Source: an uncultured Clostridia bacterium
GTDB taxonomy: Bacteria; Bacillota; Clostridia; TANB77; CAG-508
Direction of reading: 5' to 3'
Assembly: GCA_934169775.1 (NCBI GenBank)
Contig: CAKPOI010000004.1
Coordinates: 13,853-77,852, forward strand
DNA length: 64,000 nt
The notes beneath the pieces were generated by a model. That model worked only from the letters and a program-made list of their open reading frames with translations, searched no databases and was not told where the DNA came from. The position numbers and the translations under genes were made by a program. Positions 3,523 through 12,919 of this stretch are shown here, piece after piece (the stretch's first letter is position 1; each line of letters begins with the position of its first letter).

Positions 3523-5190
3523 TTATATTATTTGCATTTTTACTTCTTTGCCTTTAAATGCAAATACCATTTTTGTTATGTTTGTATATCCTTTTTCTTG
3601 TAAATCTTCTTCGTATTTTCTTTCTTCTATTTGTTTCTTTGCATTTTCTATCATATCTTCTATTGTTTTTTCTTCTTTATTTTCTAATACTTTGAATTCC
3701 ATTATAAAACTGTTTCCATTTTTGTCTTTTGGCTCTAGCATTATATCATATCTTCCATATCCTGATTCTCTATTTGATTTTACATAGTAACTATCTTTTA
3801 GTCCTACTAACATTCCTAATACAAATGCATGATAAAAGTTTTCTGCTGTGTTTTCTCCTACATCCATATAACTGAACATTTGGCGTACTAATATTTCAAA
3901 TTTCTTTTCAAATTCTTTTAAATTTAATGTTATTAAGTCTTTTAATATTGTGTTTAAATTGTTTCCTATTACTTTATCATTAAACCATTCTCTTACTATG
4001 GTTTGGAATAAGAATTTTATTTCATAATTTGGTATTTTTACTTTGTATATTCCTGTTGCTAAATCTACTACTTCTGTTACTTTTAAATATCCTGTTCCTA
4101 ATAATAGTCCCCAGATATTTTCTTCGTTTTGCTCTATTCCTACTATTACTGTGTCTAAATTTATTGGTACTTCTATTTCTTCATCTCGTAATAATTGCTC
4201 TATTTTTTCTTTTACTGTTACACTATTTTTTAGTATTAATTTTATTAAGTCATTTGAACTTGTGTTTACCCAGTATGGTACTAATTCTTTTCTATTTAAA
4301 TAATTTAATATACTCCATGGATTATATATTCCTTTTGTATTTCCTATTGTATATCCATCATACCATTTTTTTATTTCTTCTTTTTGGTCTTGAACCTCAA
4401 AGTCTTGTATAATTTTATCCATTTCTTTTTCTGTTATCCCAAAGTCATCACTGAATTCGTCATCTAATACTGTATATACGTCAAAGTTGTTTGCTCCACT
4501 AAATATACTTTCTTTGGCTACTCTTGATACTCCTGTTAATACCGTTTTTTCTAAGCATATGTTATCTTTGAATGTTGTTCCATAAAATGTTTTGAAAAAT
4601 GATATTCCTTTTTCATAATAACCATTTACATATGCTGTTTGTAAAGGTACATCATATTCATCTAAAAATAACATTACTGGCTTATCATAATATCTGTTTA
4701 AATATTTACTTAGTGTTTTTATACTATTTCTTAATACTATTTCATCTTCTTTATATGATAATATTTCTTTTATTTGTTCTTTTTCAAATGGATATATTTT
4801 GTCACTATCTAATAAGTAAATGTGTTCTAAATACATATCTGATATTGCTGTTTTTAGATTTAATATCATATTTTCATAATTTACTTCTGCTACATCTTTT
4901 AGTGTTAAATATATACATGGATAATATCCTAGCTTTGATGTGTATTTTTCGTCTTGCTCCATTATTTTTAATCCTTCAAATATTTCTTTACTGTCTTTTT
5001 TTGTGCAGTCAAAATAGTATCTTAACATACTCATATTTAGTGTTTTTCCGAATCTTCTTGGTCTTGTTACTAATATTACTGATGCCTCATTGTCTATTAT
5101 GTCTTTTATATACATCGTTTTGTCTATATAATAATTTTTTCTTATTCTTAATGCTCTAAAATCACTTTGTCCTATTCCTATTCCATACAT
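3523..5190 (-). CDS. AAA-ATPase-like (AAA-35) N-terminal domain fused to a PD-(D/E)XK nuclease-like C-terminal domain; function unknown
   Basis: 555-aa ORF. N-terminus IGQSDFRALRIRKNYYIDKT..VILVTRPRRFGKTLNMSMLRYYF is the characteristic start of the predicted AAA-ATPase family. The C-terminal segment SGYGRYDIMLEPKDKNGNSFIMEFKV fits a PD-(D/E)XK core (D..E.K). Confidence 0.8.
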   Translation of the reverse strand: MYGIGIGQSDFRALRIRKNYYIDKTMYIKDIIDNEASVILVTRPRRFGKTLNMSMLRYYFDCTKKDSKEIFEGLKIMEQDEKYTSKLGYYPCIYLTLKDVAEVNYENMILNLKTAISDMYLEHIYLLDSDKIYPFEKEQIKEILSYKEDEIVLRNSIKTLSKYLNRYYDKPVMLFLDEYDVPLQTAYVNGYYEKGISFFKTFYGTTFKDNICLEKTVLTGVSRVAKESIFSGANNFDVYTVLDDEFSDDFGITEKEMDKIIQDFEVQDQKEEIKKWYDGYTIGNTKGIYNPWSILNYLNRKELVPYWVNTSSNDLIKLILKNSVTVKEKIEQLLRDEEIEVPINLDTVIVGIEQNEENIWGLLLGTGYLKVTEVVDLATGIYKVKIPNYEIKFLFQTIVREWFNDKVIGNNLNTILKDLITLNLKEFEKKFEILVRQMFSYMDVGENTAENFYHAFVLGMLVGLKDSYYVKSNRESGYGRYDIMLEPKDKNGNSFIMEFKVLENKEEKTIEDMIENAKKQIEERKYEEDLQEKGYTNITKMVFAFKGKEVKMQII

Positions 5191-10924: not shown

Positions 10925-11001
10925 TTCATTACCTATTGATTTTATTGTTGTTTTATTTTATAATTACCTTGTAGAGATTTATGTGGAAAGGAGGTTGTTT
11001 T

Positions 11002-11718
11002 ATGCAAAATTATGACGAAAATATTAATCAAAATAATGAAGAATATAATAATGTAATTATTGATAAGAGTACTGAAAATAAAATTTTTGGTAAGACTTTT
11101 TTTTGGATGTTCTTGGGACTTTTGGGTAGTGCTATTGTTGCCGCTTATACTTATTATTCTGGACTTATAGTAAATATTGTTGTAGGTGGTTCTTGGGGTG
11201 CTCTTTTAGTTTTGGAACTTGCAGTTGTTATTATTTTTAGCTTATGCTTTAGAAAGCTTTCTCCTACTGCTGTTGGCATCTTGTATTTTCTGTATTCAAT
11301 GATTAATGGTGTAACTTTATGTACGATTTTTGCTGTTTATGAATTGAATTCTATTATTTCTTTGTTTGTTGTGTCTGCTTTGATTTTTGCCGCTTTAGGT
11401 TACATTGGATATAAAACAGATAAAGATTTGAGTAGTTGGGGCACTTACATTACTGTATTTTTGATTGCTGGTCTTATTCTTAGTATTTTAAATTTGTTTA
11501 TCTTTAAAAGTACTGGTCTTGATCTTATTTTGGATTGGATTATTCTTGCAGTATTTTTTGGTGTTACTGTTTATGATACTAATAAGATTAAAGTTTTAGA
11601 AAATGACCCTAGTATTGATACTAATAAAGTTCATATTTATTGCGCTATGCAATTATATTTAGATTTTATTAATATCTTTTTACGTATTCTTTCTATTTTT
11701 GGAAAGAGAAGAGATTAA
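11002..11718 (+). CDS. Bax inhibitor-1/YccA family membrane protein
   Basis: Seven-TM ORF ending ..VYDTNKIK..IYCAMQLYLDFINIFLRILSIFGKRRD (BI-1 signature tail). I place the start at ATG 11002, preceded by AAAGGAGG 7 nt upstream, rather than the track start 10981. Confidence 0.85.
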   Translation: MQNYDENINQNNEEYNNVIIDKSTENKIFGKTFFWMFLGLLGSAIVAAYTYYSGLIVNIVVGGSWGALLVLELAVVIIFSLCFRKLSPTAVGILYFLYSMINGVTLCTIFAVYELNSIISLFVVSALIFAALGYIGYKTDKDLSSWGTYITVFLIAGLILSILNLFIFKSTGLDLILDWIILAVFFGVTVYDTNKIKVLENDPSIDTNKVHIYCAMQLYLDFINIFLRILSIFGKRRD

Positions 11719-11769: not shown

Positions 11770-11800
11770 TAGAGTAGGTTTTGCAGCCTACTCTATTTTT
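11770..11800 (+). terminator. intrinsic terminator after the BI-1 gene
   Basis: tagagtagg-ttttgcag-cctactcta followed by ttttt. Confidence 0.65.
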
Positions 11801-11811
11801 AGAGTTGTTTT

Positions 11812-12109
11812 TTATTTTATCAGTAATATTTTTTTCATTTCAATTATATCGTAAAATGGAATATTAATTCCTTTTTTAGCTAGTTTTATAACGTTCATTG
11901 AAGTTTCTATGATTTCTTTTTTTAAAGTTTCAGTTATTTCTACATCCTGCATTTTATTTTGGTATTTACTTTCTATATATTTTTCAGTTGTTGGAAAAAT
12001 ATTTTGTATTAGAAATGCTTTTTCCTTCCCTAATACTTTTCCGAAAACAAAGTTATAAACTTTGTTTTTAACTTTTTTCTTATTTTCATATATTGTTTTA
12101 TACTTTCAT
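11812..12109 (-). pseudogene. ~98-aa hypothetical ORF with an apparent 1-nt frameshift directly after its start codon
   Basis: Minus strand has GAGGT, 5 nt, then ATG AAA GTA TAA. Removing one A gives an open frame MKYKTIYENKKKVKNKVYNFVFGKVLGKEKAFLIQNIFPTTEKYIESKYQNKMQDVEITETLKKEIIETSMNVIKLAKKGINIPFYDIIEMKKILLIK to the stop at 11812. The span is 298 nt, i.e. 99 codons plus 1. No family recognised. Confidence 0.35.
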
Positions 12110-12121
12110 TTTTACCTCATT

Positions 12122-12299
12122 TCTAACAAAAAATCCACCTTCGAAAAGGTAGATTTTTTAACATTTGTCCACCTACGCATTTATTTGTCGCAAGTAGGGT
12201 TGCGAGTAACATTTGTACACCTATGCACTTGTACCCCGCAAATAGGGTTGCGGCTAACATTTGATTTGGACAAGATACTAATCATGTATCTTTATTATT
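12122..12299 (-). ncRNA. candidate structured RNA (riboswitch-like leader or sRNA) built from tandem 48-nt pseudoknot-like units and ending in an intrinsic terminator
   Basis: A near-consensus promoter lies upstream. The RNA has a 5' hairpin (12292-12272), units at 12254-12207 and 12206-12159 plus a partial unit at 12271-12255, and a terminator AAAAAAUCUACC-loop-GGUGGAUUUUUU (12159-12128). Details are in the findings. Confidence 0.45.
12159..12271. repeat. 2.3 tandem copies of a 48-nt unit
   Basis: + strand taacatttgtccacctacgcatttatttgtcgcaagtagggttgcgag / taacatttgtacacctatgcacttgtaccccgcaaatagggttgcggc / taacatttgatttggac. The period is exactly 48 nt. Confidence 0.85.
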
Positions 12300-12305
12300 A
12301 TATTC

Positions 12306-12335
12306 ATTATAACCTTTTTTATTACTGAAAGTCAA
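12306..12335 (-). promoter_or_regulatory. near-consensus sigma-A promoter driving the structured RNA
   Basis: Minus strand TTGACT (12335-12330), 18-nt spacer, TATAAT (12311-12306). Confidence 0.55.
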
Positions 12336-12424
12336 TATGTTTCTTCTATTTTCTCACGATAAAATATTAATAATTAGTGTAAAATGGTTTCGCAATATAT
12401 AAAATAAATTATCGACACTAATTT

Positions 12425-12919
12425 TTATATTTCTTTTACACCATCATCTATAAGATAACACATTTCTTCATGTGCTGAAATGTTATCATTAATTTTATTA
12501 ACATCTAATTTTATGTATTTAATTGTTCCATTAGCCAAAAGATTTCCTTGTAAATCCAATATTGAAGATTCAACTGTAAAAAATTTTGAATTTTCTTTTA
12601 CTAGTATCCCTTTTCCTATTAAATCTTGTTTATATGGAACTGGTTTTCTGTATTTTGTATCTAATGATATTGTAACTCCAAATTCTTCTTCATTTTGTTT
12701 TTTAGCCCAAAGAGCACGTAGTCCCATTTCATCCAACATTGCTGTTATTAGTCCTCCATGTACTCTTCCTGGATAACTTTGATGTTCTTCTCTATATTGG
12801 AATTTTGTCATTACACTTCCATCTTCCATGTTATAGAATGGTGCTCTTAAACCATACTTGTTGTCTAATCCGCATATTATGCACATTTTACTGTTTCTTT
12901 GTTTGCTTATTACTTTCAT
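12425..12919 (-). CDS. PaaI-family hotdog-fold thioesterase
   Basis: 164-aa ORF with N-terminal Cys pair (CIICG) and the YPGRVHGGLITAMLDE motif typical of PaaI/4HBT thioesterases. Confidence 0.82.
   Translation of the reverse strand: MKVISKQRNSKMCIICGLDNKYGLRAPFYNMEDGSVMTKFQYREEHQSYPGRVHGGLITAMLDEMGLRALWAKKQNEEEFGVTISLDTKYRKPVPYKQDLIGKGILVKENSKFFTVESSILDLQGNLLANGTIKYIKLDVNKINDNISAHEEMCYLIDDGVKEI

Follow-up and report, generated by a model that had tools for sequence, protein, structure and literature searches.

The window analyzed here comprises 64,000 nucleotides of a contig (CAKPOI010000004.1, assembly GCA_934169775.1) from an uncultured Clostridia bacterium. On its minus strand, between about 12355 and 11808, a promoter is followed by a leader hairpin, an array of tandem 48-nt repeats, an intrinsic terminator and the remains of a protein-coding gene (Table 1). 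A first-pass annotation of the sequence had described this element as a structured RNA running from promoter to terminator, either a riboswitch-like leader or a novel small RNA (sRNA). The comparison with related loci presented here indicates that it is very likely the antitoxin half of a type III toxin-antitoxin (TA) cassette of the CptIN family, whose toxin gene, cptN, carries a deletion.

Table 1. Features of the locus, read as a very likely CptIN cassette (positions in the window).
Feature	Position	Strand	Basis
Sigma-70 promoter TTGACT-18-TATAAT	12335-12306	minus	11/12 consensus positions; top promoter-like site of the region
5' leader hairpin AAGAUAC-(7 nt)-GUAUCUU	12292-12272	minus	In minimum free energy and centroid folds
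CptI antitoxin unit 1, 48 nt	12263-12216	minus	Repeat detection, pseudoknot covariation, collinearity with Eubacterium rectale CptI
Unit 1, helices S1 and S2, loops L1 and L2	S1 12253-12248/12241-12236; L1 C12247; S2 12246-12242/12224-12220; A-rich L2 12235-12225	minus	
CptI antitoxin unit 2, 48 nt	12215-12168	minus	Repeat detection, covariation, collinearity with E. rectale CptI
Unit 2, helices S1 and S2, loops L1 and L2	S1 12205-12200/12193-12188; L1 C12199; S2 12198-12194/12176-12172; L2 12187-12177 (CAAAUAAAUGC)	minus	
Partial third repeat CAAAUGUUA	12167-12159	minus	Tandem Repeats Finder, 2.2 copies
Intrinsic terminator AAAAAAUCUACCUU-UUCG-AAGGUGGAUUUUUU, array/toxin boundary	12159-12128	minus	15-bp hairpin and U-tract in fold
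Toxin ribosome-binding site GAGGU and start ATG	12118-12114; 12109-12107	minus	Identical to intact loci L099 and L034
Junction of 173-bp deletion, AAAGUA microhomology	12106-12101	minus	Three-way DNA alignment with L099 and L034
cptN remnant, residues 60-155	12105-11812	minus	Without start codon, first 59 residues and PISSK motif

The promoter, the leader hairpin, the 48-nt repeat and the terminator named in the first-pass annotation were all recovered, by consensus matching, folding and Tandem Repeats Finder (TRF). Transcription would start near 12299 on the minus strand, and homologous loci from the two subgroups described below conserve this -35/-10 pair ahead of the array. The leader hairpin is 91% paired over 42 relatives, with both-side changes at three of its seven pairs, and may serve to stabilize the 5' end of the precursor. 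TRF reported a repeat at 12159-12263 (period 48, 2.2 copies, score 133), whose two full copies are 77% identical to each other. Concerning the terminator, a simple scan overlooked the hairpin because of its rules on stem composition; the fold and the covariation show that it is real, since its stem is 95% paired in relatives and double changes occur at six of ten stem pairs. The 179-nt RNA as a whole folds at -51.1 kcal/mol versus -34.1 ± 4.0 kcal/mol for shuffled sequences (z = -4.25), better than 200 of 200 shuffles, in a window of about 27% G+C.

Each unit had been proposed to fold as an H-type pseudoknot with compensatory changes, and homologous loci had been suggested as the place to check its stems. 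In unit 1, helix S1 is formed by CCGCAA and UUGCGG and helix S2 by CCUAU and AUAGG. Homologous units were recruited with a sequence-only nhmmer profile, and 108 distinct sequences were kept in an alignment (A2; S1 in columns 11-16/24-29, S2 in columns 18-21,23/43-47). Standard pairs fill 96.2% of the pseudoknot cells, and both sides have changed at 10 of the 11 pairs, in 138 cells. None of 500 shuffles reached any of the four measures, and when the 3' partners were slid by 1-3 columns, pairing fell to 28-47%. The compensatory variants include CGCAA/UUGCG versus CGCCA/UGGCG and CGGAG/CUCCG in S1, and CCUAU/AUAGG, CCUAC/GUAGG, CCUGC/GCAGG, CUUGU/ACAAG and ACCCA/UGGGU in S2. Hence, the stems do covary, and the pseudoknot of the tandem units is real. 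Taken jointly, the leader hairpin, both pseudoknots and the terminator show 96.8% pairing and 18 double-change pairs over 42 full-length RNAs of the window's subgroup. The junctions between units carry AAAUG, which is more than 90% conserved in A2.

These data bear on two other explanations. Direct repeats of exact period adjoining a promoter could be an element acting as DNA, that is, 48-bp iterons or operators bound by a protein. However, the compensatory changes are strand-specific and compatible with G-U pairs, and they preserve two interleaved helices, which is an RNA signature; the repeats also lie between the promoter and the terminator. The probability of a DNA-level element is practically negligible. 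On the other hand, an RNA with its own promoter and terminator, C-rich loops (ACCCUA) and, in the window, a broken open reading frame (ORF) downstream could be a trans-acting sRNA whose loops serve as seeds against the Shine-Dalgarno regions of mRNAs. This is very improbable. The loop nucleotides covary with the downstream pentamer, which places them inside S2 and makes them unavailable as seeds, and the loop varies among relatives (CCUAU, CCUAC, CCUGC, CCUGU, CUUGU, ACCCA) while the compensating partner is always present. Moreover, the RNA is strictly linked to cptN in genomes.

This linkage was seen when one genome per species was scanned with the pattern CGCAACCCTAYTTGCGN{8,18}TAGGTG, which revealed the RNA in at least 119 species-level genomes of gut Bacillota. 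The statements on loci from here on hold among the matches listed (L001-L119, about 130 arrays). The hosts are nearly all gut 'Clostridia/Clostridium sp.' metagenome-assembled genomes from humans, rabbits, mice, chickens and ruminants. Their units are mostly in tandem with 48-nt spacing, preceded by the promoter and leader hairpin and followed by the terminator. After the terminator, most loci present a ribosome-binding site (RBS) and then an ORF of 155-160 amino acids starting with MKVENGKFYFIKDEFF. The ORFs of three diverse relatives scored 159-188 bits on the NCBIfam model NF047359, 'type III toxin-antitoxin system CptIN family toxin' (an equivalog with a cut-off of 90), and the toxin of one relative matched the CptN of PDB entry 4RMO (phmmer E=3.2e-18 over 138 residues).

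Membership of this toxin in the ToxN/AbiQ family was also considered and rejected. The Pfam model ToxN_toxin (PF13958) reached E=0.019 in one of the three relatives, below the cut-off, and the PADLOC model for AbiQ reached E=5.5e-4 in one of the three. These matches are weak, and the NCBIfam and PDB results are decisive, with NF047359 beating the ToxN/AbiQ models by more than 140 bits.

A full-length CptN follows 77 of the approximately 130 arrays and a partial or fragmented cptN follows 10; another 28 have no CptN within 800 nt, and the remainder reach contig ends. Altogether, about 30% of the arrays have either a truncated toxin or none in the following 800 nt, so that loss of the toxin with the array kept is recurrent among the matches listed. 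The partial toxins are of several kinds: L049 has an internal deletion of residues ~32-133, L059 has residues 133-158 left and L001 lacks the N-terminus. About 12 listed arrays, L004, L026, L048, L040, L115 and L075 among them, bear a promoter and are without cptN.

The window belongs to the loci with a damaged toxin. The 700-bp gap had been said to hold no credible protein gene over the element, but it does include coding sequence, namely the toxin remnant. A tblastn search with the intact CptN of L034 aligned its residues 60-153 with 94% identity at 12105-11824 (E=3e-47), and the remnant matched positions 55-150 of the NF047359 profile (E=4.8e-22) with 78.4 bits, a score under the 90-bit cut-off for the sole reason that the gene is truncated. 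The two closest loci among those listed are L099 and L034, which share about 96% identity with the window in the RNA region, and there the corresponding ATG begins MKVENGKFYF.... An RBS and an ATG had been noted within 20 nt of the terminator; both are present, but they are the deleted toxin's own signals, and the frame of the ATG at 12109 reaches a TAA after only three codons. The deletion starts right after ATGAAAG, so the frame now reads ATG AAA GTA TAA, with the stop at codon 4 (12100-12098). In this way codons 3-59 were lost, including the PISSK (Ser-Ser-Lys) motif, whose aligned counterpart in the E. rectale toxin, CptN_Er, is the LSSR catalytic triad.

The first Met of the remaining frame is 46 codons before its end. 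No further frameshift or stop was found in the remnant, which is also 94% identical to an intact CptN, and both observations suggest a recent deletion. Compared with those of L099 and L034, the RNA of the window has one changed base where unit 1 ends, lacks 1 nt ahead of the terminator, and differs further in one loop base and in GGUGGA instead of GGUAGA. The last change lies in the 3' arm of the terminator and creates a G-U pair; GGUGGA is rare at this place, and most of the relatives listed, the closest included, carry GGUAGA. Regarding these data, the locus has no intact, translatable toxin ORF with a Ser-Ser-Arg/Lys triad, and with that ORF deleted and frameshifted it is a decayed member of the family, not a working pair. 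No second cptN was found in the 64-kb window by tblastn. Since no toxin can be made in this genome, the RNA of the window is an orphan antitoxin, most probably a recent and still intact remnant.

The cptIN family was described in 2012 (PMC3401426) and crystallized in 2015 (PMC4627078). In the scheme of Blower et al. 2012, a type III locus has a toxin gene with a short palindromic terminator before it, and -35 and -10 boxes ahead of the repeats are a preferred, non-strict criterion (PMC3401426). Their cptIN loci are chromosomal only, have repeats of 40-48 nt in 1.9-3.4 copies and toxins of 45-213 amino acids (Table 2 in PMC3401426), and several of them keep full repeat sets with truncated toxins. 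All the architectural elements of this scheme are found here (promoter, tandem array, palindromic terminator and toxin homology), and the period of 48 and the 2.2 copies of the window lie inside the published ranges. The same order of promoter, about two tandem repeats, terminator and toxin is shared with the CptIN systems of Coprococcus catus and E. rectale, to whose CptN family the toxins of the relatives belong by NCBIfam and PDB sequence match. The restriction of cptIN to chromosomes is also mirrored, as the family of the window gave no match in a phage collection or in IMG/VR.

According to Blower et al. 2012, the CptI sequences could not be aligned (PMC3401426), and one CptI structure was solved by Rao et al. 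2015 (PMC4627078). The CptI of E. rectale (CptI_Er) has 45 nt and folds as an H-type pseudoknot in which L1 is a single base and L2 is long and rich in A (A27-G35, AUAUAAAUG) (PMC4627078). Its sequence was rebuilt from a primer sequence in that paper and aligned globally to the window units; it is collinear with them element by element and beats 499-500 of 500 shuffles. The common features are the H-type fold, a 6-bp S1, a 1-nt L1, a 5-bp S2 and an A-rich L2 with AUAAAUG, and no spacer separates the 5' strand of S2 from the 3' strand of S1. The differences are that the unit of the window has 48 nt versus 45 and its L2 has 11 nt versus 9, and that a conserved 5' leader hairpin stands ahead of arrays of the window type. 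Regarding the toxin, the triad is Ser-Ser-Lys in window-type proteins versus Ser-Ser-Arg in CptN_Er, the toxin of the closest relatives among the matches listed is a distant homologue (phmmer E=3e-18, 138 residues) and, in the window itself, it was inactivated by the deletion. The repeat architecture, the covariation of the pseudoknot, the CptN homology of the downstream gene and the deletion were all observed directly.

The layout of promoter, structured repeats, terminator, RBS and ATG is also that of a transcriptional riboswitch, a cis-regulatory leader in which the tandem pseudoknots would be ligand-binding aptamers controlling the terminator and the downstream ORF. The first-pass annotation had proposed an anti-terminator in which GGUGGA at the end of unit 2 pairs with UCUACC, the 5' arm of the terminator. 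This complementarity was found in 95.6% of the relatives' cells, but it presents zero compensatory changes, and 500 of 500 shuffles equal it. The terminator may instead descend from a degenerate third repeat (its CUAC...GGUAG is like the S2 strands), and ancestry would then explain the resemblance. Furthermore, Rfam 15 gave no match in the window at gathering thresholds, and even at E<=10 it gave only noise in 11900-12500 (STnc240, a miRNA and a snoRNA on the terminator). The downstream gene, where present in the loci listed, encodes CptN and never a metabolic or transport protein, the units also occur without any downstream gene and beside recombinases, and their fold matches a crystallized protein-binding antitoxin. 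A riboswitch is hardly credible at this locus, and nothing in these data requires or supports a switch that senses a ligand. What stands of the original description is the structure, a non-coding RNA of tandem H-type pseudoknot units running from promoter to terminator; the proposed function as a riboswitch-like leader or a novel sRNA is not supported.

Compact H-type pseudoknots placed before a terminator are a feature shared with the preQ1-I/II, SAM-II, guanidine-III and tandem glycine riboswitches, and the A-minor twist of the CptI L2 resembles SAM-II (PMC4627078). Unlike them, the RNA of the window has no Rfam match, no metabolite-related genes downstream and no covarying anti-terminator, and its partner is a protein.

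A helix closing both units, between UUGUCCA and UGGACAA, had also been proposed. These segments are complementary in 87.8% of the relatives' cells, but their covariation is not above that of shuffles and the variants mostly break the helix. The two U residues at 12273-12272 belong both to this helix and to the leader hairpin.

The relatives include a second large subgroup, B (for example, L001, L012, L017 and L101), with AAAAUGUGA junctions and a different terminator (AAAUGUGGGGUCUA...UAGAUCCCAUAUUU). By eye, the flanks of a two-unit array in subgroup B are complementary, with CUAUAAUUAA before unit 1 and UUAAUUAUAG after the third AAAAUG. This pair has the position of the proposed closing helix and a different sequence, and its single substitutions are uncompensated. 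An array-closing helix is therefore unproven.

Concerning the function of the CptIN cassette, a constitutive sigma-70 promoter would drive the synthesis of the leader hairpin and the 2.2 tandem 48-nt CptI repeats. The terminator would halt most transcripts, and in the intact relatives a minority would read through into cptN; in type III systems the terminator sets the ratio of antitoxin RNA to toxin mRNA (PMC3401426). CptN, an RNase A-like endoribonuclease, would then cut the precursor at the conserved A-rich junctions (ACAAAUG in the window), and the single pseudoknot units would remain bound to CptN and occlude its active site, giving a closed protein-RNA ring. If the supply of antitoxin RNA dropped, free CptN would degrade cellular RNA. 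In E. rectale, cleavage of the precursor by CptN falls after A45 and leaves a cyclic phosphate. The complex there is a closed heterotetramer of two CptN and two CptI, and the active site consists of a Ser-Ser-Arg triad with Asp81, Ser85 and Tyr104 (PMC4627078). By analogy, CptN would process arrays of the window type into unit-length RNAs with 2',3'-cyclic phosphates, followed by an inhibited complex. The partial third repeat could supply the conserved A-rich junction for cutting the 3' end of unit 2, because CptN cuts after A45 at repeat junctions (PMC4627078). Likewise, the ring assembly and the read-through ratios at the terminator are predicted from E. rectale CptIN and ToxIN.

Several points weigh against the assignment to CptIN. 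Because the recruiting pattern held one unit per locus constant, the conservation figures are biased upward, and most of the covariation was contributed by the partner units that it left free. Rfam has no model against which the family could be tested. Between the units of the window, 14-15 nt are single-stranded, versus 10-11 nt in CptI_Er, and the cut site is putative. Expression and processing of the RNA in the window are extrapolated from E. rectale CptIN and ToxIN. Finally, the toxin is broken, and no TA pair is possible unless a cognate CptN is encoded elsewhere in the genome.

This last point leads to a further explanation, which bears on the present-day function of the element and not on its identity, namely that the CptI array has been retained by selection to neutralize in trans a cognate CptN located elsewhere in the genome or on mobile elements. 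The loss of 173 bp in the window struck the toxin and left the promoter, the terminator and the two pseudoknots intact. Among the arrays listed, the 10 with partial toxins and the 28 without CptN in 800 nt are consistent with this idea, as are the mixed-unit toxin-less arrays that lie beside serine recombinases in 15 genomes. Pseudoknot pairing is 92-95% in orphan arrays versus 94% in toxin-linked ones, figures that are biased by the recruiting pattern. Nevertheless, a viable decay must lose the toxin before the antitoxin, so orphans are expected as neutral intermediates, and the remnant, 94% identical to intact CptN and without further disruption, points to a recent deletion. The recruiting pattern demanded one perfect unit, which favors intact arrays, the CptI/CptN pairs are cognate-specific and this tight specificity limits cross-protection (PMC4627078), and the window holds no second cptN. 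Selective retention is therefore an unlikely explanation, though one to be taken seriously. Since survival of the cell requires that the toxin be lost first, a neutral and recent intermediate of decay is the simplest reading.

The logic of CptIN, in which a tandem-repeat RNA is cut by its own toxin into inhibitory pseudoknots, is shared with ToxIN from Pectobacterium atrosepticum (pECA1039) and Bacillus thuringiensis and with AbiQ/antiQ from Lactococcus. In ToxIN, too, the terminator sets the ratio of RNA to toxin transcript. However, the toxins of ToxIN and AbiQ belong to a family distinct from the CptN of the relatives, and ToxI has units of 34-36 nt in 2.8-5.5 copies, triplex interactions and a heterohexameric triangle versus the heterotetramer of CptIN. 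The phage PhiTE reportedly escapes ToxIN through pseudo-ToxI decoys. Such decoys suggest that toxin-less arrays could neutralize a type III toxin in trans, and they are the closest precedent for a functional orphan CptI as well as for the mixed arrays beside serine recombinases. The difference is that no phage context was found for the array of the window, for which the remnant of a decayed cassette is the simpler reading.

The segment common to the window and the fetched loci is limited to 11808-12355, and the flanks differ among the matches listed. Similarity breaks off abruptly at the stop codon of the toxin on one side and about 20 nt ahead of the -35 box on the other. Only L039, among those listed, has an mnmA-like neighbor, with 65% identity. 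Because flanks and neighbors differ among genomes, the cassette is a discrete module occupying different chromosomal places, and it behaves as small, self-contained and relocatable. An orthologous intact locus at the same chromosomal position was not found among the fetched loci. An origin in a mobile element was considered and rejected, as no match appeared in the phage collection or in the IMG/VR viral contigs; one weak match was to a hypothetical protein on a Megamonas plasmid.

In addition, 15 of the listed genomes contain CptI-type arrays without promoter, leader hairpin or CptN gene. Five of them lie at L119:2245-2420, L019:4367-4560, L110:2338-2530, L088 (minus strand, ~3743-3942) and L020:5555-5720, and the others are in L021, L038, L042, L054, L073, L097, L103, L105, L022 and L085. 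A conserved terminator (aaaactattcc...ggagtagttttt) follows each of the 15, and in 13 of them a gene for a large serine recombinase (Resolvase, Recombinase and Zn_ribbon_recom domains) starts within 700 nt. In 5 of the 15, a third unit, this one of the E. rectale CptI type, stands after two 48-nt units of differing types and has compensatory changes of its own (for example, ACCGC/GCGGU and CCAAU/GUUGG in L019). In L019, L110 and L088 the promoterless array stands directly after an intact cptIN cassette with different units.

These recombinase-linked arrays could be antitoxin decoys of several specificities on an integrative element, or a recombination site. That orphan CptI arrays in general, those of the window and those next to recombinases, are maintained as trans-acting immunity and are not debris seems rather improbable. 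If it were so, orphan arrays would neutralize CptN from elsewhere in the genome or from competing mobile elements, and mobile elements would carry multi-specificity arrays as anti-addiction or anti-defense decoys.

For annotation, these results mean that the structured RNA of the window corresponds to an array of CptI antitoxin units, and the 300 bp that follow it, so far without annotation, to a cptN pseudogene. Because there is no Rfam model, scans will go on flagging CptI RNAs as novel and riboswitch-like. The CptIN system itself is known; what is new is the consensus of a gut 48-nt CptI subfamily that has a leader hairpin, lacks an Rfam model and presents frequent orphans. The 108-unit alignment provides this large subfamily with a consensus supported by covariation, and the frequent loss of the toxin provides a natural series in which the decay of an RNA-protein TA pair can be studied.

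Two minor observations concern the borders of the cassette. In homologous loci such as L010, L032, L033 and L061, the partial third repeat (CAAATGTTA) contains an ATG whose frame runs across the terminator into that of cptN, and therefore mechanical ORF calling lengthens the toxin by 19-35 residues (MLIKIYLFGGRFFVRNEVK-MKVENG...). It is likely a source of wrong cptN starts and of RNA genes concealed under ORFs.

At the other border, beyond the shared cassette and directly past the cptN stop, a G+C-containing hairpin (AGAGUAGG-CUGCAAAA-CCUACUCU) was observed at 11771-11794. The RNA element itself follows a same-strand row of genes, sufS-sufU-mnmA-thioesterase, and is convergent with a gene of the Bax1-I family (10981-11718). 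Situated between the cptN remnant and the Bax1-I gene, this hairpin is probably a bidirectional terminator of the host locus and not part of the cassette.

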